Source of the DNA: Pseudovirgaria hyperparasitica
Taxonomy: Eukaryota
DNA length: 64,000 nt
Direction: 5' to 3' (one strand)
NCBI GenBank assembly: GCA_010093815.1
Contig: ML996569.1
Of the stretch, positions 1-45,159 are shown piece after piece. The notes below the pieces were generated by a model that saw only the letters and a program-made list of their open reading frames with translations, was not told where the DNA came from and made no database searches. A program made the translations under genes and the position numbers. Every line of letters begins with the position of its first letter. Positions within the stretch are counted from its first letter, which is position 1.

Positions 1-2422
1 ACAATAGCTGTGAACACATCCGCATTCTTCGAGCCTGAACCCTCGACAGTGAGTCGCTTTCGGAAATCCTCAGCCAAAGCCTCTGTTTCCTCCTTCTCGC
101 CGGCCACAAGAATTAGCTTGCGCGGTGCAATGAGAGGCACAAGCATCTGGAGATTGCGTTTGTCGTGAAGACCAGAGAAATCGATGAACGATACGTGACA
201 TGCAATTTTGATCTTTTCCTCTTCAAAAACCGCTTTGCAGGGTCCGTCAACACCCTCGCGGTCGTCATCCTCGTCTGACTCTGAAACGTCTTCTGGAGCG
301 TCCTCAACCAATGTGTCCCCATCCACATCTATTGAACCATCTCGCCGCGCGACTTTATTGCCATCGTTACTCTTGCGCCTTTTTTGTGTATTAGAAGCAG
401 GGCCACGCCAACCAGCAGGGGCTGATAACAGATTCGAATCTCCCCATCGTCTCTTTTGGCCAACGATGTTCTCTTTAGTGGCACCGGATCGCATGTCCTC
501 GCCGTCAATCTCGTCGCGTTCCTCCGCCCGAAGATATTCTTCAGGACGAATCATCTCACCAAAGTCATCGCCTCGTCTTTTCTTTGATGTGAAAGGGAAC
601 ATCTTTTCTCGTCCTCTTTTTCCGCGAACATCATAGTCATGAACTCCTGTGCCCCTAGTCAAGATGGTGATTCCAAGCTCTGCATCGCTCAAACCCAGTT
701 TGTTGTGGCGTGCATTAGTCATGGTGGCGGAAACATTGAGAGCCTTGCCTTGATGCTCAACGTCCGAATCCTCTGAGCTTGACGAGGAAGAGTCGGATTG
801 GTCTTCTATCACGTCTGCTGATGTCTCTAAAGCCGAGGCTCCAGGTCCTTCTCCATGGACCACATTCTGTCGCTGCCGTTGTCTTGCAAGGTACTGCTGA
901 TATATAGGTGTCTCATTTGCTGTCAACGGCAGCACTTTTACCGACCGTGTGGCGAGGTCCGTCCCAGAAGGCTCCACGACTGTTGCTTCATCTGAATTAC
1001 TCATACTTCCAGCTCCTTCATTCCAATATTGCCAAAGAGCACTGCCTAGTGACATACTGCCCGCGATTTGGCCTGGGCGTTCGGTCAAAATGATGATGTT
1101 TCGGGAATCTGATGCAATGTGGCGTAGAGTGTCCCTTGAAAACCCCCAGTTCAATGAGCTATCGCTCGCAATGATAACGACCGGCTGTTCCGTCGAGAGA
1201 TTGCGAATTATTGACGACTTTTTTTCGAGAAGCTTCAGATACCTAAAATCGAAAGGGGCTTTGACATTCTTGTTCTCTGTATTCTGAGCCTGCTGAGTTC
1301 GACTGCGACCGTTGCCATGTGGCGTTGGGTTCGCACTTGCAGTCTCAAAGTCTCTCACGAGGCCTTCTTCCATCCATTCGAGCATGCTTCGAGCATATCT
1401 CATAGTTGAGCCACACGTTCTGCTGGCTAGAAGTAGTTTCGCAGCGCGCAAGGGATTATCGTCATCATTGCCAACAGTCCACGCCTCCTCGAGAATATAT
1501 GCCAGTTCAAGAACGCGGGCGCTCGAATCGGAGGGAATAAGCACCGAGCCGCCCTTCGATACAGCATCTCTTATGAGACCCAACAAGCTCTCGTCTCGAC
1601 CTCTTCCAGAACCATTTGTATGACTAGCTGCTGGCCCTCTGCTACTACAAACGAGAGCAGTCGGCTTCCGAAGTTGCTCGATGACCTCAGAAGAGCCGGA
1701 CGCGCCACCCAACCATGCAGCTCCTGATAGTACGTGCTCTCTGGCTTGATTCCAGTCCACCGCATAGACGATAGATTCCAGACCATGCTGAATATTCCAA
1801 ATTGTCCCTCCTAGCGTGTGTCCAGCGCTGTATGCGGTAATAGTCAAGCCGTTCAACGGTGGAGAGAAAGGTGAGGGCATCGGCTGGTGAGGTTGTGAGT
1901 ATTTGAGAGGATTGATCAGAGCAAAATAGCCAGCGATCTCATCAGCACTCGGAGGCTGTAGCAGAATGTTGGGGTTTTTGTCATCTTGAGTAGTCGCGTA
2001 TGAGTATGTAGATTCGGAGAAAGCGGATGGTGGAAGGATTGAGGCCGCGAGAGGAGAAGACGCGTAGATGTCTTGCAATAGAGTTCTTCCCAATGATATG
2101 ACCGGTGTCGTAGCATATATGGGAATTCTGGTAAAGAGAGGAAAGTTTTTGCAACAGTGTGCAAAGGCGCCGAGGTGAGCAATAGTTGCGTGAGTGAGTA
2201 GCACAACAGATAAAGTGGGAATTTGCCTGATATAGCGGATTAGGTGTGCAAATTTATGGATTGACGTAGACACTACCTTTCGAGATCCTTGAGCATCTCA
2301 GCATCGAAAGACTCATCCCAGCCTACGTCGACAAGCAGCTTGATACCTCCATCAAGCTCCAGAATTGATTGCGACGCCTTTGAGCTTGATTGCGCGCCAA
2401 GCAGAGCAGTATACTGGAACAT
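1..2422 (-). CDS. CFT2: Cleavage and polyadenylation specificity factor subunit 2 (CPSF100/Cft2); 3' end runs off the window
   Basis: Starts MFQYTALLGAQSSSKASQSILELDGGIKLLVDVGWDESFD. Intron ~2276-2227, then RQIPTLSVVLLTHATIAHLGAFAHCCKNFPLFTRIPIYATTPVISLGRTLLQDIY, and later AYSAGHTLGGTIW. This is an inactive metallo-beta-lactamase/beta-CASP fold typical of CPSF2. Confidence 0.93.
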
Positions 2423-15539: not shown

Positions 15540-16650
15540 TGGTGATACTCTGGGGAGGGGCCAAGTTCGAGATCAGCATTAAGATCTCATGATCGACGTT
15601 GGAATATGGTGGCGTAACTTTCGGATATCATTTTTTGGGCACGGCGCTAACAAAATTGGAGAAAATTGTATAGGAAAGATGCTAACAGACGGACCTTAGG
15701 GATTGGGTATTCACTAGCTTGTTATAACGAACGAAGTTAAGGTTCATACCTTGATGTCAGTAATGGAGTTTATTATGCGTGACCAATATTGAAGTGCACT
15801 ATCAGAAGGAAAAAAATGATCCCCTGTATGTACCATATATCGAGAAGCTTTAGACTGATCTGCTGCTGTTGTTCATTCACTTTTTGATCTCATGACAACT
15901 GTGAATATGCTCAGTACACATGGCAGGACGTAAAAGGGCTATTTACAGATACCTAATGTGCTTTACCAGCCTTAAGATGTCATATGTCATACGGATCAGG
16001 CACTCATTGTGGAGTCGCCTCATATTTGTGTATATAATAAGTCATTCACGAAGGACAAGGTGGACAATAACAAGTAGCAGACAATTAAGCTGCGACACTG
16101 CAGCAGACGCGTTCAGATCAGCAATCAGAAAGAAATGATTTCAAGTTCAGATATACTGACCCAACGGTACACTGACTAGCTCATGCATCTAGAGTAGCGA
16201 TATCCTCGAATGGGGGTACGCCCTTATATGGGTCCACGAGTGTTCAGAACTCAGCGTACCAAACAGGCTCCATCATCCATATAGTCATGGATACTTAGAG
16301 GAATGATGTGCTCAGAAGGGTATCAGAATCTGTGGCGTCATGATAACGACTCAATCTCGTAGTGTTAAGCTATATAGTAAATTCGTGGGTTATCACTCAT
16401 CTTCAAATCGCTTCTCTTTGAGATTTGTATCAAGTTTCAGGTATACGTGAGCAGTCATAACACAAAATCACCATAGCACGATACATATTCTCACGATAAT
16501 CAATACGGTCGAAACCGTGTTCAATGCTTATGCCTGGGCCTGCTTGGGCCTAACCAGGCGACTTGTACTTCCTGATGTCTAGCCCCTGAACGCCGCCGAT
16601 GCTATGCTAATCATACAGAGTCCTCCCTTGCTCCCTATACCTTCTCCACC

Positions 16651-19590
16651 TCACTCCAACTCCTTTACCACCAGCGCTAGAATATCCTCCACCCCCATGC
16701 CCTCGATCTCGGGCTTCTTCGCCAAGCGCTGCCAAACCTCGCCATGGCGAGGCGCGCTCTGCACGCACTTCTCTCTCACCTCCGCCTGCTTCTCATCTGT
16801 CCCATGTTGCGCCAGGAACTTGACATACCAGGCCCATCCGTCACCCCAGTCTGGGTCCGTGCCGACCGCTTTCTCGAACCACGTCGCGGCCTTGTCCAGC
16901 TTGCGCTCCGCCCAGAAGATGCGCGCGACAGTGCAGAACAGTACGGGATCGTCCTTGGCCTTCTTGATGGCTTCGAGACTGCGTGCTTTGCGGTGCGTGC
17001 GCGCTTCAAGGTACCAGATACGCTCGCTCCAGAGCAGGCCTGAGTTAGGCACTTCGCGAAGGGCTTGGGCCATGAGAGCTTGTGCGGCAGGAAGTTGGTT
17101 GGCACGGCGCTCGAGACGGATACTTTCTGTCCAGAGTTCGGGGGACTTGGGGATGGCGAGACGGGCACGGTCGAGCACAGAGCGAGCTTTGACGATCACA
17201 CCAGCTTTCTCTTCTATGCGTGAGGCAAGGAGCCACAGAGGAACGCTCTTAGGACAGTTGCGTGTGCCTTGAGTGTAGGCTTCGCGAGCTTGTGGAAGCT
17301 TGTTGAGATCTTCGTAGATCTGGCCTTTCTGCATCCAGAGCTTTGCGTAACCGGAATACATAGATAGTGCTTGGTTGACGAGGTCGAGAGCGACAGGTAG
17401 GTCGCGCTGTTGACGTTCAAAGGCGACGGACTTCATCCATACACGGTCAGTGCCAGCTTTGTCTCGCGCTTCAGCAAGAAACTGACGAGCCATGTCGAAA
17501 TTTTGTATTGTAGCTTCGAATTGAACGGCGTTTAGGTAGATGTTTTCATTGCCAGGATTGGCGACAAAAGCCTGAGCTAGAACCATACGAGCACCATCCA
17601 AGTCATTGTTTGCGCGCTTTTCACGTGCGAATTGCATCCAGAGTTCTTCGGCCTGAGGACAGGCTTCAACGCCCTGCTCGAGCAGAGCTAGCAGATCTTC
17701 TTTGTCACCATGTAGACGCTCAAGATTGGCAGCCGCGAGCCAGGCTTCTGGCTTGTTGTAGAAGACGCGAAGTGCGTATGCGTAGATTGCTCGTGCTGTG
17801 ATGTAGAGACCTCTGTTCGTGCAGCTTCTTGCATCTGCGAGCCAAATGTCGATGCGAGTGTCATCTTCCTGTAGTGACCACCCGAGGGTTTCACGGATGA
17901 TAGATTGACAAGTGTGTATCGCGCCTTCCTCTTCGCACTTCTCGGCCTCAGTGATCCATTCGGTCCTCTTCAGCATAGCATCCTGTCGTGCAAGGGCTTT
18001 GACGGCGCCTGATATGACTTTCGAGGCCATTTTCAGATCGCCTGTCTGCTCCATCATTCGAGCACCGGCTAGATACAGCCTGTAGCTCGTTGGTAACGCT
18101 ATACGTGCCTTATTTAGCACAATACGTGCGTTATCAGCGGTCTCAAGTCTCGCAAGTGCCAGCCAAAGATCTTCGGATTTGGGTATCATTTCTACAGCTT
18201 TGGCAAGAAGTAGTCGTGCTTCCTCGACATTCTCTTCCTCGTTCACCATCATCTTCCATAGTTTCTCGGACGTAGGTACTCGGTCAAGCGCTTGTCGTAG
18301 AACTCTCTTCTTCGCTCTAGGGTCCTCCTCTAGTCTCGTAGCCTCCAGCCATAGCGGGACTGACGTATCAAGATTCTTGATCGCATTGGCGGCAATGATC
18401 CTGGCGTTGTGTCTGTCATTGATGCGTATCCTCTCGAGCCACACATCCTCACTCTTAGGGCAATGCTCACATGCACGCGAGAGGAGATCTCTGGCGGCAA
18501 GGGCTCGACCCGCATGTTCCTCAAGCCGTGCAGCCGCTACCCACGCAGGGCCATGCTTCGGATTTGTCTTGACGACCGACTCCATCAAGGTTCTGACACG
18601 CTTTAGATCACCCACATTTGCCGCTGCACCCAGACCAGATTCTGATTGCGCCAGACTCGTCAGGTAGCCTTTTGGATCAACCGTCGTCGCCGTGCCGGAC
18701 GTTGTTTCTGTGGTAGTGCCTTGCGCTGCTTGGTCTAGGCGCACCTGAAGCACCTTATCTCTTGCCGCACCGATATCCGCGAAGTTCGTCATCGTGCCGT
18801 CTCCACTCGAACCGGGACCACCGGATTCGATCGCTGTCTCCATAGCGTTCGCATCGCGCGCGCCTGCGATGACACTATCTGGTACTGCGTAGAATCGTTG
18901 TCGAAGATTCTGCTTCGCGCGTCGATTTTTACCCGTCAAGTCACCGACGCTGGGTAAGGCGGCCCATTCTTCATCCGTGACGGTGCTTAGCTCACGCTTG
19001 AGATCTGCGAATTGTTGTTGAATTTTCGGGTTGTTGCGCTCATACTCGTCGCGCTCCTCCTGCTCGCGCTTTTCCCTGTGTAATATCAGGTGTCAGTATA
19101 CTGACCCACCAATTAAGCCTCTGAAAGATATAATCGATGTGTAGGGTGGAGAGAGAATGACAGCACGTAGCCACGCTCTTTCAATGTATGTTGTAGAGCG
19201 AAAAAGTGGGTGTAGCTACCTTCTGGCTTTCCTTCTCCTATCCATCCTCTCGTCCACATCCTGGTAGATGCGATCCGCCTCATCATCATCGCGGTCAAAG
19301 TTGCCGTTTGCGAACAGTCCCACCTCATTCTCTGGGTCTTGATACCGATCATCATCGCCGGCATCACCTTCTTCTTCCTTTTTCTTCTCTACCACACCAT
19401 AAGCTGTGGGTGGTGCAATACCAGCGGCAGCAGCTCTTTTCGCAAGGACTTCTTTGATCTGGTCTTCACTAGGGCCCTCACGCGCAGGACCAAGATCGGA
19501 ACGTGTGGTGAAGCCGGTGGCACCTCGACCGAGACCTGCGACGTAATTTTCGGGCGCAGCTTGGGAGAGGAAGTCTTTGCGACCAGACAT
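16651..19590 (-). CDS. PRP6: U4/U6.U5 tri-snRNP pre-mRNA splicing factor Prp6 (S. pombe Prp1), HAT/TPR repeats
   Basis: N-terminus MSGRKDFLSQAAPENYVAGLGRGATGFTTRSDLGPAR (PRP1_N), NPKIQQQFADLKR, VDPKGYLTSL, then many HAT repeats. One intron 19219-19076. Confidence 0.97.
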
Positions 19591-20006
19591 TGCGGGCGTC
19601 AGGGGAGCGCGAGGCTCTCGAGGGAAAGAAAGGTTCAAATACAGAGAGAGAATTAAGCTTGTGCAAAGGTGTAGAAAACTGTGAAGGTACCTAAAGATCG
19701 CGAAGTTCTGGCGCGACAAGGCCGAAGCTATAGCTACGTAGACCGCTAGTCGTATGAAGTTAGGTCATATCACTACTATCTAATGCCTGAGGCACTCATT
19801 TGGACGTATCTGGAGTGGGAAAACAGGGATAGAAACTTTAATAGCTTGAAATATATCCCACGTCATGCAACGGTGATCACTAACTTTCATAATTGCGTAG
19901 TTGCGTAATTGAAGAAAGTGACCCATTCCATATTCTTAATTTCGATAATTCCACAGGCCGAGTGACATATCAGCACTTTCGCGCCAATCAATAGTGAACA
20001 CCACAT

Positions 20007-21770
20007 CTAGGCCGAATGAGAATGTACCACACCCCCCTTCTCAACGTCTCTTCCCGCAATATCCGCCGCATGGAAAGCAAGAGGGTCGCCACCCTTCTCT
20101 TGTGCCGCCCTGACCTCCTCAATCGCTGCGTCAAGTCCTGATTGACCCTTCTTCGTCTGCCATGCATGCGGGCCTTCCTTGCTAAACATGAACTCAATTT
20201 CCTCAAGCGTCTTGCCACAAGTCTCTGGGAAGAAGAAATAGAAGTGAATCGCCGCAAGTCCACACATGCCGCCGAAGATCAGGAAGATCCGATACAAGAT
20301 ATTGCGGAACGCCGGTGGCACGAATAGGCCGAGCGCAAAGTTGAAGAGCCAATTACCTGTTCCAGAGTTAATTTGAATGCCCATAGTGGACGAGATAGCC
20401 AAAAGCGTAAATACCTGTTGCGGAGATCCCCATACCAGTAGCGCGCGTCTCAAGAGACCAGACTTCGGCTGCATATACCCAGCACACCGGGGCCAGAGTG
20501 AGGGAGTATATTATGATCATGAGGTACGAGAAAGCTATCACGCCGTGTGCAGGAGATCCAATGACACGCATGAGAACGTTCTTGTCATTATTGACTCCTT
20601 CGGGGACGTACTCATAGTAGCCGCCGAGAAGACCACCAATAACGAAGTGGCAAATACCCATTCCAAGTGCGCCCCAAACGAGGAGTGTACGGCGACCAAG
20701 GCGGTCGATATAGAAAAACATGATGGTCGTGAAGATGATGAAGAGCGCGTATTGGATCCCCGATGAGATGAGGTTTACGTTTCCTGACAGATTTGCCATC
20801 ATAAAGACGTATACTACATAGTAAGTCATACTTTTTTGTCTCCTCAGTACAATTGAAACCTGCATGTTGATCTTCAAACTTACACGTTCGCTCCCGCAAG
20901 CTGTTGCCAAGCCTGGACGGAAAATCCAGTCAGAGTACGCTTCCACATGCCATGCGCGAACCATTTCTTGATACCTTTACCAGCCGCGCGCTCTGCAGTA
21001 AGGACCGTGGTGATCTCATTGAGCTCAGCGATGACTAAGGGATCATGTCGGTTGCCTCCAGCTTGAATCCTAGCAAGTATGTCGATTGCTTCGTCCATGC
21101 GATCTACCTTGGCCAACCAGCGAGGAGATTCAGGAAGGAAGGGAAGGCCAATCATGAAGAATACACAAGGGACAAACTGAATACCCCAGGCAGTTCTGAA
21201 GGACTTGGTCCCTTCCATAAAGGAGCATCCATAACCAATGAAGTACATGATCAGGACACCCCATTCGATCGCTAGTTGCTGAATTATGACCAGTGAACCG
21301 CGCTTCTCTTTCTTTGCGATCTCGGCGAGGTAGACAGGAACCTGGGAGGAAGTGATACCAACAGTGATACCATTGAGAATACGACCTCCGATGAGCATGC
21401 CTTGATTCTGAACAGCGACCTGAACCGCAGTCCCCACGAGCCAGGGAAGACATGAGATGACGAGGGCATTGCGACGACCAAGTTTGTCAGAAATGGGACC
21501 AGCAATGATTGAACCTACAACAGATCCAGCAGCGAGAGCAGAGCCGATGGCCCCTTGATTGATGCCGGATGGATTATGGAAGTAGTCCTTGTACTGGTTT
21601 GTACCGATGATAGCAGACATCGATGAGATGTCGAAGCCAAAGCTGTAAAGCAATCAGCATCCGGATATGGCCTTGGGAACTTGCAAAGAATCTTACAGCA
21701 TGCCACCTACTGTAGCGATCATGGCCACAAAGTAGGTGTTGTAGATCTTAGGAAAGGTAGGGAGGCCCAT
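20007..21770 (-). CDS. MFS sugar porter, high-affinity glucose transporter (HGT1-like)
   Basis: IATVGGMLFGFDISSMS, SDKLGRR, PVYLAEI, PESPRWL, QAWQQLAGANV, DRLGRR, PETCGKTLEEI motifs. Introns ~21696-21643, ~20882-20826, ~20414-20357. Confidence 0.93.
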
Positions 21771-22352
21771 GATGCCAGTACTCAGGTTCTATGATTCTTC
21801 TTGACGACAACTTTGAAATTGATTTTGGGGAGAACAGCAGGCAAGAAATGGATATGCAGGACGTGGGCAGATTATATTGAGCTTCAGGACGCACAAGGGC
21901 GCTAGTGTCCCAGGTGGAAACGTGATCAGTGCTCGAAAGTGAGGTCCACCATCATGACGGAGTGAACTGTGAGTGGTTTAAATCTGCTGCAGGCAGGGGA
22001 TCGATCTACTGTGCACGGGACAGACGGACTGCGTGACCACATACTTGTTCACAACACAAAACTCAGCCCTTGCCTGCTTCTCTTGCATTGGACCAGTTCC
22101 GATACCGCGTGCACCAGCAACTATAATGGGCTGTCACCCTCCAGTGCAACATGTCTCCCAAGCACGACGATCAACTTCGATGGGAGTACCAATTTTGTAA
22201 GAGGCGTCGTCCATAGATTCGACAGTGGTTAGTATGACAGAGTAACGGATTGAGCTCATCCTGTTGTACAACTCGCACTGTGTCAGGGAGTGCGATGAGT
22301 GTTGTAGATACAGTGCGTCACATGCTGGACGAGTGAAGCTGGAATGTGAAAT

Positions 22353-40478: not shown

Positions 40479-43400
40479 ATGGCTGCGAAGAAAAAGAAAA
40501 AAGCAGCCTCAAATCCTGCCAGAGGCTTCGCAACAACGTCAATAGCTAGCAAGATAAAAGCTGATGGCAACACAGAATCATCCAATATCTCCGAAGCTGG
40601 AGACGCGCAGCCCGCGGCTCCAACAGAGGCTATTGAGAAACATGACCCTGCTGTTGTGAAAGGCCACGAGAAGGATCTTGCGGAGCTGACCCCAGAGGAG
40701 CTTGAGATACAGCTTGAATACAGCGAATTTCAACTTCTTGTAGAGAAGCTCTCCCCAAAAGCCGTCCGGGACACAGCCAGGACACTTTCGCGCATCAAAA
40801 CAGAGCGACGTGTTCTTCTATCCAATAGCCAGATTCTTTCGACCAAAGACTGGCTCGAGGATGAAGATGTGGATCATCTAATGAACTTGAAATTTGTTCC
40901 AAGCGTAGAACCAAATCCTTCGCCGACTGTACCAAGGTCTATCTTCAAGACTGCTGCAACTGAGGATCTGCTGTTGAAGCTTTGGACCCTCCAACAGATC
41001 CTCCTTGGTCTATACTTTCCTTCGAGTAGAGTAACCGAGGCACTGCTTTGGATCTGTCAGACAGCACCTTGTGTAATTCCTGAGGGTCTGCCTTGGGGTG
41101 TGCAAGAATGTCTCGACTGGCTGACTGTTAATTGTACCACTGAGGAGCTTCGTGATTTTGAATTTATGCAGAGACACAACAGTCGCGCAAATACTACCTT
41201 AACCTCTCCTGGTAAGTGTGTCGATTGTAAATATCCTCTTCTTTTTCATCTAATTGTTGCCATTCCGGTATGATTCTCCCCTGTATGAATCTACCCACGC
41301 GTATGACTATCAAGAGCGAATCGTGAGCCTGAGACGTTTTAACGCACTAGCGAAACGGCAGTTTTGAGTTTCTTTCCTATGTAGCTAACTCTGAGCAGAT
41401 AAAACGTTACGATCTGGATCAAGCATCAGATCTAATCTGTCGCATAAAGCTGCCGTAGTAGAACCCCCTTCACAACATGCTCCTGTGGTGGACATTGCAC
41501 CATTTGAACCGGACGACAATGTCTCTGACCTTGATAGCGATATGGAACCCGATGACATGATCTCAGCATATCTGAAGGTAAAATCAAAACTCTTTGAGGC
41601 CGCTCCTGCCAGCTTTGCTCGTAAAGGACGTGGACCGCAGGACAAGAAGGAGGTGAACATTAACTCCAGTCTTCGTATGCGTAAGTTGAACCGCCAGCTT
41701 GAGCAACTAGAGAAGGACGTATTGTTCGATCAGAGTTTGGCCGACGAGAGATGGCATGCCCAAAAAGTCAAACTTGCGCAAGAAAACGCGGCGAAAAAAC
41801 GACTAGGAATTGATAGTTCCAATAGCAGGAAGCGCGATTCTAATAACCTGTCCAAGATGATAAATCCCGCCATGAAGATGACATTGGATTCTGACAAAGT
41901 TAATGGTGGTTCCGATGTGGATGGAGACGAAGATTTACTTGGTGCCATGTTTACAGAGCCCGAGAATGGGGGACATCAAGCGACCACCAATATAGCCACG
42001 GGCGACACGAGTATAAAAATACGTCACTTTGCGGAAGCTAAAGGTCTCAGCCCAAGACGCATCGTAGAAGAGACTCTAAAAGCAATGTAAGTCGTGTGCA
42101 TCGATCCCTGGTCGTTGAATGCTGATATGCGAAGGCTTGTTGGCGCAAAGGCAACGTGGAAACATATCTCTCCTACAACGTATTCCAGTCGGCACTCTGT
42201 TTCAATACACTTTTCGAATCCCCCAGAAGCTGAAAGACTGCCGTCAATACCTGGACTCGACATATTTTGGATCAAATCCAGAACGCTGCGATTGGACATG
42301 GTCGATATCGCCACAGATTCCGAAAAGCAGAGCGAGTCTTTCGTCGCTACGACAGCGCTCTTTGTAGTGTGCAACTATTTACCAGGTGATGATAAAGCTT
42401 ATCTACGTCTGCCATCGGTCTGGCGAGACCTTTACAAAGAATTTGCCGAAGCGAAGAAAGAGCAAACTGATGCTGAGGCACGGAAAACTTTGAAAGAACT
42501 TCGGATTCTGATCGATGAACAGAGAGACTACGATGAAGATGAAGACGTAGTGCTAACACATAACTTTCTCAAGCGCGCTAAAGAACGTGAGCAGCAGACA
42601 TCTGACTCTGATTCTGAGCGAGGAGAGTATCGGCCTACAAAAGACCCTGAGAAAGTGAAAGCATTATGGCAGAACAAGATCTCGACATCTACATATCAGC
42701 GGATGCTTCTTGGAAGAATGCAGCTGCCCATGTACCAGTTCAAGCATGCTGCTTTATCGGCTATCGAAAATCACCAAGTCATAATCCTTTGCGGAGAGAC
42801 CGGGTGTGGTAAAAGCACACAGCTACCGGCCTACATACTGGAGCACCAGCTGTCGAACGGCCGGCCCTGTAAGATATATTGTACAGAGCCGCGTCGAATA
42901 TCGGCCATTTCCCTGGCTCAACGCGTATCTGAAGAACTGGGTGAGCCAAAGAATGCGGCTGGGACACACTCGTCTCTCGTGGGCTATGCTATCAGGCTAG
43001 AGTCGCACATTAGCACTGAGACTCGACTTGTCTATGCTACAGTCGGAATTGTACTGCGTATGCTCGAATCTCCTCGTGGATTGAACGACATAACGCACTT
43101 GGTCATTGACGAAGTCCACGAGCGTAGCATCGATACAGACTTCCTGCTCATTGTGCTTCGTGGCCTAATGGAACGACGCCCTGATTTGAGAGTAATCCTT
43201 ATGAGTGCTACAGTTGATGCGCAGACATTCTCACGATATCTAGGGGACGCTCCTATCCTCAATGTGCCCGGGCGAACGTTTCCTGTCAACACTCGATACT
43301 TAGAAGATGCTATCGAGTTTACTCATTACAAGAAAAAGAATGACGACGCAGGTAGGGAGGGATCTTCGAGCGACGATGATGATCCCGGCACAGAATCAAT

Positions 43401-45159
43401 GTCCGGCATACCGAAGAACCTCCAAGGCTATAGCATCGCAACGCGGAATTCTCTTCAAGAATATGACGAATACCGTGTGGACTACAATCTCATCATGAAC
43501 CTAATCACGAAGATCACGAATGATGCGTCTACAACCCATTTCAGCAAAGCTTTCCTGGTCTTTCTGCCCGGTATCGCAGAAATACGCACATTAAATGACG
43601 TAATTCTCAACAACTCTGCTTTCAACGAAGACTGGTGGATTCTCCCTCTACATTCCACCATTGCTAGCGAGGATCAACAGAAAGCTTTCCTGTTCCCCCC
43701 TCCCGGTGTTCGCAAAATAGTGCTCGCGACCAACATTGCTGAAACTGGTGTTACGATTCCTGATGTTACCTGCGTCATCGATACTGGCAAGCACAAGGAA
43801 ATGCGATTCGACGAGCGCCGCCAGCTCTCTCGTCTTGTACAGTCTTTCATCTCCCGTGCAAACGCAAAGCAGCGGCGCGGCCGTGCAGGTCGTGTTCAAG
43901 AGGGTCTCTGCTTTCACCTCTTTACAAAGTACCGCCACGATGAACTGATGGCACTTCAACAGACTCCTGAAATGCTGCGTCTGAGTTTGCAGGATCTCGT
44001 TATGCGCACCAAGATATGTAAACTTGGTGCCATCGAAGCAACACTCTCAGCCGCCCTTGACCCTCCATCGACCAAGAATATCCGAAGAGCGATTGATGCT
44101 CTCGTGGAAGTCAATGCACTGACGCCGAAAGAAGATCTCACCCCTCTTGGTATACAACTTGCGAAACTTCCGCTGGACGCTCACCTAGGGAAGCTTGTAT
44201 TATACGCATGTATATTCCGCTGTGCCGATGCCGGTATTACTATTGCAGCAATACTGAGTTCAAAAAGTCCGTTCGTGATACCGTTTGGCGCACGTGAGAA
44301 AGCAAATGCGGCCAGAGTCTCCTTTAACCAAGGCGACTCCGATCTTTTGACCGAGTATGCGGCCTATCGTGCCTGGAAAACTGTCTGTCTTCAACCCGGC
44401 GCGCGAGAAGTCGAATTTTGTCGAAGGAACTGTCTTTCTGCACAGACCTTTTCTGCAATCGAAGAACTAAAAGCGCAGCTTTTCAGCTCGCTCGTCGACG
44501 CTGGATTCATTTCGCTATCAGCTGAGGAGAAGATCGGGCTCAATCGCGCACGCAACTCGCGGGCTGGATTCGGCCGCAGCAGAGCATTCGTTCCAGTGCC
44601 TTCTGCCTCTGACACACATTCAACCTGCGACGCGCTTGTTCTGAGTATGCTTGCAGTTGCGTTCCATCCGCATATACTCACACGTGCGGCAACTGCAGCA
44701 GGTGGTGGGGGCAGTGGAAAGGGGTATACATCCATCTCCTCGCCCTCGCCGATTTCTCTCAATCCAACATCCGTCCTACGTTTATCACCACCTCGAAGTC
44801 CGTATGCGTTATTGTCATATCATAGTATTTTAAGCACGTCAAGCTCAAATGCACCAGCTGCACATGGTCTGAGCCCGGTTCCCATATTACCTTTCCTGCT
44901 CTTGGCAGGCGATGCGGATTTCAAAGTGTGGGCGAAGGGTGTGGTGTTCGATGGCAATAGATTGAGGTATCGGGTAGAGAGTAGCAGGATGTGTGTTGGG
45001 TTGAAGAGGGCCAGGAAGGGTGTTAGAAATATTGTTGAGGGGAGAATGAAGAACAGCGGAAAGGGATCCGGGAGCAAAGCAGAGAGGGACTGGATCGAAT
45101 GGTTCTTGAAGATGTTTGGGGAGTATAAGGGGGATGGGAAGTGGGGCAAGAAGGTTTAG
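40479..45159 (+). CDS. DEAH-box RNA helicase, DHX29/DHX57-like
   Basis: MAAKKKKKAASNPARGFATTSIASK, GETGCGKSTQ, CTEPRRISA, VIDEVHERS, ILMSAT, VLATNIAETG, QRRGRAGRV, HA2 region. Introns 41212-41398 and ~42087-42134. Confidence 0.92.

Follow-up and report, generated by a model that had tools for sequence, protein, structure and literature searches.

The S. pombe TER1 system, as described in excerpts of PMC4299874, combines a branch site fully complementary to U2 with a long distance between branch and 3′ splice site, which attenuate the step transition of splicing and trigger discard, and the same excerpts describe how a donor with C at position +3 (GUCAGU) hyperstabilises the interaction with U6. 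Other described systems include conserved intronic structures that conceal branch sites and regulate alternative splicing, including that of poison exons (PMC11162794, in part), the unproductive splicing of splicing-factor genes such as those of SR proteins (PMC4379411, in part), and the SART-1/Snu66 5′-UTR motif of fungi (Li and Breaker 2017; PMC5640933, in part). The names PRP6 and prp1 have 0 occurrences in the available text of PMC5640933 and of PMC8216456.

The present study concerns a 64-kb stretch of Pseudovirgaria hyperparasitica DNA, hereafter the window, and in particular an intron in its PRP6/prp1 gene. Prp6 and Snu66 are both tri-snRNP proteins. The original prediction held that a donor hairpin and a branch hairpin lock the splice signals of this intron, that pairing of ACCCAC with GUGGGU opens the branch hairpin and draws donor and branch close to each other, and that intron retention together with NMD sets Prp6 levels. 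We found that the intron is a member of an ancient, sequence-conserved family in Pezizomycotina, of which the position, the length, and two internal blocks are kept across classes, and that it is in these respects, which differ from the proposed hairpins, that the intron is unusual. The features of the locus are collected in Table 1.

Table 1. Coordinates of the PRP6/prp1 exons, the intron, and the elements within it, in positions of the window
Feature	Position	Strand	Details
PRP6/prp1 exon 1	19220..19590	-	ATG at 19590; 123 codons + 2 nt; Pfam PRP1_N profile positions 1–94
Phase-2 spliceosomal intron, GUAGCU...ACAG	19076..19219	-	144 nt; contig joints and same-site orthologous introns
PRP6/prp1 exon 2	16651..19075	-	807 codons + stop; 100% protein identity to database prp1
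Donor hairpin, intron nt 1–53	19167..19219	-	GUAGCUAC/GUGGCUAC and CGCUCU/AGAGCG; predicted −13.9 kcal/mol; without conservation in orthologs
Segment of ~34 nt without counterpart in any ortholog	19155..19192	-	two alignments; limits alignment-dependent; contains the donor hairpin's 3′ arms
Predicted hairpin, intron nt 81–113	19107..19139	-	−8.0 kcal/mol; 5′ strand homologous to the conserved mid-intron block
Branch region GGUCAGU-A-UACUGAC	19092..19106	-	local form of the extended U2-complementary site conserved in the family; includes palindrome 19092–19105; likely branch A 19093
Second branch-like motif CUGAU	19085..19089	-	10 nt from the 3′ splice site; no conserved counterpart in orthologs

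The translation of exon 2 (807 aa) is 100% identical to a database protein named prp1, whose length of 931 aa is that of the two-exon model (124 + 807 residues), and the Pfam PRP1_N match is continuous over the junction, resuming at profile position 96 and running to 144 in exon 2. Excision of the intron restores the reading frame and the PRP1_N domain, as for a U2-type (GU-AG) intron, whereas read-through translation ends in ...KARR and meets a UAG straight after codon 124, which bears out the immediate in-frame stop predicted for retention and gives the retained form the premature stop that is characteristic of autoregulatory unproductive splicing. Contigs from runs X1 and X2 join 19074/5 to 19219/20, skipping exactly 144 nt, and also skip neighbouring introns of 51–58 nt (58, 53, 51, and 54 nt at the four clean joints in the contig alignment); both runs come from one sample of one study, and since the kind of run is unrecorded we infer the RNA origin of the contigs from the joints. 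The sole transcript form assembled across the intron is the spliced one, in contigs that cannot reveal rare forms, and ligated exons as the assembled form are the opposite of a TER1-like arrest after the first step. No contig covers the interior of the intron, and nothing is concluded from that. The intron with donor GUAGCU is thus genuine and is cleanly excised at the borders given in Table 1 by an ordinary U2-type mechanism; it is longer than its neighbours, by a factor of 2.5–2.8 rather than the threefold originally claimed.

Orthologous introns were taken from metagenomic fungal PRP6 loci by scripted, position-anchored extraction, the loci being without taxon labels and phylogenetically non-independent. 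In 57 of the 65 assessable loci (a further 15 were unassessable) an intron interrupts the gene at one shared codon position, and its absence from the other 8 implies that it is dispensable in some lineages. The 57 loci hold 43 distinct orthologous introns of 73–126 nt (median 110), to which the window intron was added for a set of 44 sequences. The family is characterised by a fixed phase-2 site following RRKxR, a length roughly double the local norm, a GUUAGU or GUUGGU donor with U at +3, a pyrimidine-rich stretch, and a conserved mid-intron block (AUGUUCAUCA / AUGGUUUAUCA in the relatives) whose counterpart in the window is the 5′ strand of the hairpin at 19107..19139. Mean pairwise identity is 0.71 in the mid block, 0.715 in the branch block, and 0.76 in the donor, against 0.50 for third codon positions in the exons on either side and 0.36–0.47 in the remaining intron, such that the intron blocks are more conserved than synonymous codon sites. 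Such conservation across classes inside a short fungal intron is rare, the Prp6 proteins compared being only about 65% identical. Annotated proteins that read through the intron belong to Leotiomycetes, Eurotiomycetes, Candelariomycetes, Dothideomycetes, and lichen-forming lineages, and it is because some public gene models read through it that these come in two lengths (~931–940 aa and ~956–975 aa).

The conserved branch site of the family is made up of GRAYAGA, one spacer base, and URCCGAC. The seven-base extension GRAYAGA is complementary to U2 snRNA nt 39–45, directly beside the U2 branch-recognition sequence, as judged from a U2 sequence (nt 33–45) taken from yeast, an intron mimetic, and excerpts of animal and plant papers, from which Pezizomycotina U2 may differ. 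The yeast sequence is printed in the excerpted part of PMC4712673, and the intron strand of a designed U2-intron duplex (PMC12342898, in part) is nearly the same as the conserved PRP6 block; a search for a U2 gene in the DNA examined here found none. Among the 43 introns with a branch motif, the extension forms 7/7 pairs in 27, 6/7 in 11, 5/7 in 4, and 4/7 in 1, and most of its variants still pair, with R facing U and Y facing G, the exceptions being the spacer-adjacent position and the five sequences that have 5 or 4 pairs. The core, in turn, pairs at 5/6 positions in 42 of the 43 and at 6/6 in the window intron only, where a core of UACUGAC, homologous to the URCCGAC of the orthologs, stands beside an extension pairing at 5/7 and leaves 17 nt between the candidate branch A and the 3′ splice site, inside the interval of 10–30 nt upstream of that site and within the family's range of 11–25 nt. 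The site pattern has 38 matches in 586,145 nt searched on both strands, of which 34 fall in assessed PRP6 introns, 3 fall in PRP6 introns of otherwise unassessable loci, and 1 lies elsewhere; the RNAduplex energies against U2 (mean −11.3 kcal/mol, shuffles −8.9) amount to a modest gain, with only 1 of 44 sequences beating all 200 of its shuffles. The conserved branch block reads as an extended docking site for U2 snRNA that is common to several fungal classes, and, to judge by its sequence, the palindrome noticed in the window is the Pseudovirgaria version of this U2-complementary site. The CUGAU named as a second candidate branch motif is present as well. A YAG conserved immediately 5′ of the branch core is a possible proximal alternative 3′ splice site; the transcripts examined show no sign of its use, and the annotated protein model P0010 appears to use it.

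Every complement named in the original prediction occurs in the sequence, namely the 14-nt palindrome over CUGAC at 19092–19105, the GUAGCUA/UGGCUAC and CGCTCT/AGAGCG arms of the donor hairpin, ACCCAC/GTGGGT, and the palindromic GTAGCTAC; six complementary pairs of at least 6 nt were found within 201 nt. The predicted minimum-energy fold of −34.3 kcal/mol includes the hairpins at donor and branch (the latter −4.3 kcal/mol), and the intron folds better than its shuffles in two sets, with a z-score of −2.37 in one (5/200 shuffles folding as well) and −2.73 in the other (0/200 as good). Helix probabilities are predicted at 0.77–0.99 and remain so when exon sequence of up to 100 nt is added on each side, and the GUCAG/CUGAC helix that buries the branch A is predicted at 0.99–1.00. 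The ACCCAC/GUGGGU complement is real, but as a competing pairing it is not supported, having a predicted probability of 0.00, a cost of 8.3 kcal/mol when forced to form, and a match length that is at chance level, about two such 6-mer pairs being expected per 144 nt by our estimate.

The switch is not supported by comparison with the family, a comparison that spans distant relatives, the closest database protein after the gene's own match being only 67% identical. All three pairings are absent from the 43 orthologous introns, which fold no better than shuffles (mean z +0.20, 0/43 below −2, the window alone being low at −2.73). The donor hairpin has its 3′ arms in the insertion found only in the window, with gaps in 42–43 of the 44 rows; two of the five pairs of the branch palindrome are unpaired in 42/44 sequences, 44.5% of cells pair, equal to shuffles, and the hairpin occurs in 1/44; and ACCCAC/GUGGGU pairs in 53.6% of cells across the family vs 51.1% when shuffled. 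RNAalifold returned 0 consensus pairs for the orthologous introns, and the proposed family helices show one-sided changes only and no compensatory ones. What the alignment of orthologs upholds is therefore the above-average length of the intron and not its pairing. An Rfam search of the window gave no match at the gathering score, the best match at E values up to 10 being a chance-level miRNA model (22 bits vs a threshold of 100). Another candidate structure, in which block 2 would pair with the 5′ portion of the branch block and so perhaps mimic and compete with U2, is unproven, being pairable in 83% of cells without compensation and predicted at a probability above 0.5 in only 7/43 orthologs; a snoRNA host was rejected, inspection by eye showing neither a box C/D nor an H/ACA pattern and Rfam giving no match. 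These results do not support the intron as a conserved structured cis-regulatory RNA. The hairpins are thermodynamically credible but lineage-specific, and instead of forming a conserved switch they probably arose as by-products or modulate splicing locally at most; single-species hairpins should, as a caution, not be taken as switches.

The model of locked splice signals that we started from can still point to hairpins of −13.9 and −4.3 kcal/mol that hold at probabilities of 0.77–0.99 in all flank contexts tried, to an intron that as a whole folds better than shuffles, and to the immediate UAG upon retention. It can also point to the relatives, in which the GUUGGU donor is complementary at 6/6 positions to the branch ACCGAC, which makes donor-branch contact a recurring possibility in the family, with a helix probability above 0.5 in 9/17 such introns. 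As a conserved helix this last pairing was rejected (87% of cells pair, no covariation, absent from the window), and with 0/3 of the proposed pairings conserved, an alternative pairing of zero predicted probability that rests on a 6-mer match at chance level, a hairpin 3′ arm supplied by a lineage-specific insertion, a spliced form as the assembled transcript, and no evident trigger of the kind that a switch requires, we regard the model as very improbable. The plainest reading, in which the intron is constitutive and incidentally long, its blocks are the splice signals that long introns need, and its hairpins are chance or mutational by-products, accords with the efficient splicing implied by the assembled contig, the lack of a thermodynamic or covariation signal in the family, and the loss of the intron from 8 loci. 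It leaves unaccounted for a length and a non-signal mid-intron block (identity 0.71) conserved across classes and above synonymous sites, a branch-core mismatch conserved in 42/43 introns, a conserved non-consensus donor, and an enrichment of in-frame stop-free forms, and we consider it unlikely.

That enrichment, and the donor itself, bear on two further readings. The donor has U at +3 in 37/44 introns and a pyrimidine there in 38/44, one being GUCAGU, and a stop at +2..+4 is found in only 5/44 (GUAAGU twice, GUAAGC, GUGAGU, and the GUAGCU of the window). Lengths are a multiple of 3 in 27 of the 44 distinct introns, and 17 of the 44 are also stop-free in frame, where 0.078 would be expected per intron; with one member counted per similarity cluster the figures are 10.5/30 (P ~9e-6) or 5.4/21 (P ~0.02), the clusters not being truly independent. 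Of 105 homologous protein models in which both flanking motifs occur, 27 contain the read-through peptide. The intron may on these grounds be a retention-tolerant fail-safe, such that unspliced mRNA yields a usable Prp6 with an insert of 31–42 residues: it would have been kept translatable in many lineages because PRP6 is needed for splicing, and the +3 U donor would have been kept because consensus donors put an immediate stop in phase 2, the whole arrangement being lost in Pseudovirgaria. We hold this to be possible, if on the doubtful side, as the retained isoform is deduced from sequence, 27/44 introns are untranslatable, the conserved nucleotides do not cluster at non-wobble positions (so that the insert is not under protein-level selection), and the U2 extension is left unexplained. 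Quite unlikely, in our view, is a kinetic trap of the TER1 type, in which an over-stable duplex of U2 and branch and a +3 pyrimidine with extra U6 pairing would slow the passage from first to second step, part of the transcripts would be discarded, and PRP6 yield would report the remodelling capacity of the spliceosome. The precedent in S. pombe (PMC4299874, in part), the extended U2 duplex in the family, and the +3 pyrimidines speak for it; the core mismatch that the family keeps is the opposite of fully complementary, the branch-to-3′ splice-site distance is ordinary (11–25 nt), a +3 U gives a wobble pair only, and the spliced product is what was assembled in Pseudovirgaria, with no intermediates observed.

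The reading that we favour, and consider likely, is that the locus holds an ordinary U2-type intron of an ancient, sequence-conserved PRP6/prp1 family in Pezizomycotina, to which lineage-specific hairpins have been added. The pattern of conservation suggests that the intron is probably specialised and tuned: the seven-base extension, beside a mismatched core, would act as a "U2 clamp" that sets how well or how fast the intron is used, and PRP6 output would then depend on the state of the spliceosome. Pseudovirgaria appears to have remodelled this arrangement, with the core improved to UACUGAC, the extension weakened to 5/7, and the donor now GUAGCU; the 14-nt palindrome would be an incidental outcome, arising because the core improved and the extension weakened, and an insertion of ~34 nt, putatively acquired in this lineage and complementary to the intron's own 5′ end, would have created the donor hairpin. 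Much more tentatively, and only if all of its parts hold jointly, the intron could be an ancient cis-acting module of at least four Pezizomycotina classes that makes the supply of a tri-snRNP protein depend on spliceosome state, with a deliberately mismatched core held by the seven-base clamp on U2 nt 39–45, an off-consensus donor (+3 U) that in many lineages is also complementary to the branch, and a frame kept open for unspliced mRNA still to make Prp6; Pseudovirgaria would have rebuilt the module by repairing the core, weakening the clamp, and closing the frame by UAG, and the new donor hairpin may have taken over the attenuating role. The significance of the locus lies in where the conserved block sits, as what reads as an extended U2 site beside a conserved weak branch core in the gene of a core spliceosome protein; this offers a concrete feature, open to mutation, for asking how fungi control the expression of spliceosome components and how they balance branch-site strength.

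Introner-like elements have unusually stable predicted folds, and both they (in Dothideomycetes) and stwintrons (in Pezizomycotina) resemble the PRP6 intron in being longer than the usual fungal intron. An introner-like element was rejected, there being no second copy within the 64-kb window, an ancestral position, and homologous sequence in other classes, and a [D1,2] stwintron was rejected because the intron starts G-U-A-G-C-U and has no second GU directly after the first G. Like the introns of TER1 and fungal telomerase RNAs, that of PRP6 is a natural intron whose behaviour would be set by unusually strong snRNA pairing, at the branch with U2 and through a +3 pyrimidine with U6; unlike TER1, a non-coding RNA with a first-step stop, its host is an mRNA in which the exons are joined, its core mismatch is conserved, and its extra pairing lies upstream, against U2 nt 39–45 (PMC4299874, in part). 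In the window, the hairpin predicted to cover the branch site recalls the structures of PMC11162794 (in part), but occurs in 1/44 sequences and involves no alternative exon. As in the genes with unproductive splicing and in SART-1/Snu66, a conserved non-coding element lies in the gene of a spliceosome component, and retention in PRP6 leads to a premature stop (PMC4379411 and PMC5640933, both in part). No alternative PRP6 isoform was observed, the contigs of one sample containing only the spliced form, and the PRP6 element differs from the elements of both systems: what is conserved is primary sequence with complementarity to an snRNA, and neither an ultraconserved poison exon nor a structure that covaries (PMC4379411 and PMC5640933, as excerpted).

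The intron under study separates the two exons of PRP6/prp1 on the minus strand (see table), with positions 1–94 of the Pfam PRP1_N profile falling in exon 1, positions 96–144 at the start of exon 2, and the HAT/TPR repeats thereafter. A 931-aa database protein, named in one source as the putative pre-mRNA-splicing factor prp1 of Pseudovirgaria hyperparasitica, was 100% identical over the 807-aa translation of exon 2, and it has as many residues as the two-exon model predicts (124 + 807). This fungus belongs to the Acrospermales (Dothideomycetes), and the next-best homologs of its PRP6 were only ~67% identical, leaving no close relative for comparison. Transcript-like contigs from two sequencing runs of one sample in one study, the kind of which is unrecorded (X1 and X2), were mapped on 16500–22000. 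A 2,966-nt contig of X1 and a 2,964-nt contig of X2 span the PRP6 gene and join 19074/5 to 19219/20 with 144 nt skipped, so the intron borders are right; assembled contigs are blind to rare forms. Further joints, in the neighbouring gene(s), come from other contigs and skip 58, 53, 51, and 54 nt; the donors there read GUAAGU, GUAAGA, and GUAUUU. The original prediction had described an intron of about three times the usual length, with a non-consensus donor and hairpin pairings; these features are present in the sequence, although the intron is 2.5–2.8 times as long as its neighbours, not three times. One X2 contig (record 11) is of mixed strand sense: its 51-nt gap at 21243–21293 is bounded by GT..AG on the plus strand, but its remaining three joints read CT..AC, as for minus-strand introns. 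A non-canonical intron, antisense transcription, or chimeric assembly could each account for this. Low-depth contigs at 20023–20619 contain extra joints in the neighbouring gene that skip 363 nt and 97 nt, with shorter sides of 30 and 28 nt, and these may be alternative or spurious forms.

Features of the PRP6/prp1 gene and the hairpins of the minimum-energy fold of its intron
Feature	Position	Strand	Details
PRP6/prp1 exon 1	ATG at 19590, end at 19220	minus	
PRP6/prp1 intron	19219..19076	minus	144 nt, GUAGCU...ACAG
PRP6/prp1 exon 2	ends at stop 16651-16653	minus	
Donor hairpin	intron nt 1-53		-13.9 kcal/mol alone
Mid hairpin	intron nt 81-113		-8.0 kcal/mol
Branch palindrome hairpin			-4.3 kcal/mol

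Orthologous introns were sought by scanning a profile of 23 full-length PRP6 homologs (A1) against metagenome contigs, which gave 378 matched stretches, 188 of them encoding a relative; the best 80 were kept, and the intron site was anchored on the flanking conserved peptides EADxIY and NPKIQQQF. Among these best 80 of 188, 57 loci match the window in the exact codon position and phase of the intron, eight lack an intron at the site (L011, L017, L029–L031, L035, L042, and L075), and 15 were left out of the assessment as truncated or too divergent, although three of the latter (L061, L073, and L080) have the branch block at the expected place. The 57 loci yielded 43 distinct introns of 73–126 nt (median 110), all well above the ordinary 51–58 nt of introns in the window. 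The eight intron-less loci, some on contigs of 180–250 kb, share exon sequence of the type EADKIY...AKMDKRR, and they suggest, from sequence comparison, intron loss in at least two lineages.

Conservation in the alignment of 44 introns (A2; the 43 orthologs and the window intron) is concentrated in four blocks: the donor (mean pairwise identity 0.76), a mid-intron block reading AUGGUUUAUCA or AUGUUCAUCA (0.71), the branch block (0.715), and the last seven bases (0.785). The remaining intron is at 0.36–0.47, and the flanking 42 codons are at 0.50 in third positions and 0.88 in first and second positions. Donors are GUUAGU in 18 introns, GUUGGU in 17, and other forms in nine, with U at +3 in 37 of the 44; the window donor, GUAGCU, is the sole one without G at +5.

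The original prediction held that this intron may be an RNA-structure switch, in which hairpins can lock the donor and the branch motif and an ACCCAC/GUGGGU pairing competes with them. Every one of these pairings is present in the window sequence, and the minimum-energy fold (-34.3 kcal/mol) was more stable than most shuffles (z -2.37, 5/200 as good; in a second run, z -2.73, 0/200 as good). The three hairpins had helix probabilities of 0.77–0.99, unchanged in kind with up to 100 nt of exon added on each side. The competing helix had a predicted probability of 0.00, its forced fold reached -26.0 against -34.3 kcal/mol, and one 6-mer complement in 144 nt is the chance expectation; the hairpins are thus credible in silico, whereas the proposed switch partner is not. 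Across A2 the competing helix pairs in 53.6% of cells compared with 51.1% in shuffles (43/500 as high). The inner helix of the donor hairpin has letters in only one or two of 44 rows, with its 3′ strand falling in the gap of the others, and the outer helix pairs in 45% of cells against 38–49% in slid controls. The branch palindrome pairs in 44.5% of cells, as do shuffles, with two of its five pairs unpaired in 42 of 44 sequences. RNAalifold returned no consensus pair for the 44 sequences, and the 43 orthologs showed no folding excess over their own shuffles, with z averaging +0.20 (median +0.10) and never falling below -2. The switch therefore fails the conservation criterion set in the original prediction, in that pairing is not kept across orthologs; above-average length is. 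The switch gains no support from conservation or from the energetics of the alternative pairing, and is possible only as a lineage-specific add-on. When the window intron was aligned with the most similar ortholog type (A3), both 3′ arms of the donor hairpin lay in a window-only segment of ~34 nt. This segment, with AGAGCG followed by UGGCUAC, reads as an inverted complement of the 5′ end of the same intron (CGCUCU and GUAGCUA), and it plausibly arose by inverted duplication.

The branch block offers a better-supported reading. Its consensus is a seven-base extension, G-R-A-Y-A-G-A, one spacer base, and the core U-R-C-C-G-A-C. Yeast U2 nt 31–78, as printed in the methods portion of PMC4712673, starts with the branch-recognition hexamer GUAGUA, directly followed by UCUGUUC, to which the extension is complementary. 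A branch motif is recognisable in 43 introns, and in these the extension pairs at 7/7 positions in 27, 6/7 in 11, 5/7 in four, and 4/7 in one; we estimate the chance of a 7/7 match at fixed spacing at ~1 in 512. Most variation preserves the pairing (A/G opposite U, C/U opposite G), except at the position beside the spacer and in the five sequences that form just four or five pairs. A core mismatch, C opposite A35 of U2, is kept in 42 of 43, and the fully matched UACUGAC occurs in the window only. In PMC12342898, a designed U2–intron duplex pairs GUGUAGUAUCUGUUCUU with AAGAACAGAUACUGACAC, and its intron strand is nearly the conserved PRP6 branch block. The U2 reference consists of the yeast sequence and this mimetic, from which we infer its identity in Pezizomycotina; the DNA form of the string also occurs in papers dealing with human, amphibian, fish, and larch samples, which supports this. 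The site pattern had 38 matches in 586,145 nt on both strands: 34 in assessed PRP6 introns, three in unassessed PRP6 introns, and one elsewhere. This last (~42188–42202, minus strand), antisense inside a plus-strand ORF at 42091–45159, is most likely due to chance. RNAduplex energies of the introns against U2 were only modestly better than those of shuffles. The best duplex of the window intron with U2 nt 31–48 involved not the homologous site but its last 19 nt (GACA...GAUAUUACAC; 19078–19095, minus strand; intron nt 125–143), with 14 pairs at -13.9 kcal/mol (14/200 shuffles as good), and it stops 1 nt short of the 3′ splice site; this predicted pairing may be a decoy register or chance.

The window branch region, GGUCAGU-A-UACUGAC, aligns with GGACAGU-A-UACCGAC of the nearest type with two substitutions that jointly produce the perfect palindrome: A to U in the extension, at the cost of one U2 pair, and C to U in the core, which adds one. 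Judged from this alignment, the palindrome is the form that the putative U2 docking site takes in this species rather than an added element, and the window intron is probably this species' reshaped copy of a PRP6 intron that is ancient and conserved in sequence, with an extended U2-complementary site as its branch region. Other pairings in the family are possible on folding models. GUUGGU is complementary to ACCGAC at 6/6 positions, and 87% of cells pair across the alignment with no covariation; the helix exceeded a probability of 0.5 in 10 of 43 orthologs (nine of the 17 GUUGGU introns and one other) and was at 0.00 in the window. A further helix would join the mid block to the 5′ part of the U2 extension; 83% of cells can pair, all changes are one-sided, and folding predicts this helix in only 7 of 43 orthologs.

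Retention may be tolerated in many lineages of the family. Homolog searches returned 120 proteins, 105 with both flanking motifs, of which 78 have spliced spacing and 27 read through in frame, mostly with a peptide ending in, e.g., QITD(L/V), the translated branch block. The read-through genera included Coleophoma, Hymenoscyphus, Hyaloscypha, Lachnellula, Rutstroemia, Cadophora, Aspergillus, Penicillium, Sarea, Candelina, Piccolia, Sarcosagium, Pleopsidium, and Elsinoe; classes looked up for four names were Dothideomycetes, Candelariomycetes, and Leotiomycetes, and Aspergillus and Penicillium are Eurotiomycetes. Of the 44 introns, 27 have a length divisible by three, and 17 of these also lack an in-frame stop, against 0.078 expected per intron in composition-matched shuffles; with one member per similarity cluster, the stop-free counts are 10.5/30 (binomial P ~9e-6) or 5.4/21 (P ~0.02). 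The post-junction codon is donor +2..+4 in this phase, so that the common donors GUAAGU and GUGAGU would bring an immediate stop, which GUU(A/G)GU avoids. A stop lies there in only five of 44 donors, among them that of the window, whose GUAGCU places the anticipated UAG immediately in frame upon retention. These patterns suggest that, in many lineages, translation of unspliced PRP6 mRNA may be frequent enough to be of consequence. In-frame read-through accounts for the two lengths of annotated Prp1/PRP6, ~931–940 aa and ~956–975 aa, and models of 938 aa and 973 aa exist for the same Aspergillus species. One model, that of Pleopsidium flavum (P0010), seems spliced to a conserved YAG immediately 5′ of the branch core, giving 12 extra in-frame residues; this annotated model shows that gene predictors can take the YAG for a 3′ splice site. 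As to function, we infer that PRP6 output may be tuned to spliceosome state, with retention tolerated in many lineages.

The window intron had no match in Rfam, and PRP6/prp1 had no occurrence in two fungal conserved-RNA-structure screens (PMC5640933, PMC8216456), the former of which reports a leader motif for SART-1/Snu66, likewise a gene for a spliceosomal protein. A literature search on PRP6 retention or autoregulation, conserved Pezizomycotina introns, and extended U2 complementarity, the coverage of which mostly excludes subscription journals, found no paper on the PRP6 intron. An introner-like element was rejected on the ancestral position of the intron and the lack of a second copy within the 64-kb window; a stwintron was rejected on the lack of a nested donor directly after the first G and, again, the ancestral position. 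The nearest mechanistic precedent is the fission-yeast telomerase-RNA intron, in which, according to PMC4299874, a branch site fully complementary to U2 or a +3 C donor with an extra U6 pair delays the transition between splicing steps, with discard as the result. The PRP6 family shares with it the theme of tuned intron–snRNA pairing but differs in completing splicing and in keeping the core mismatch.
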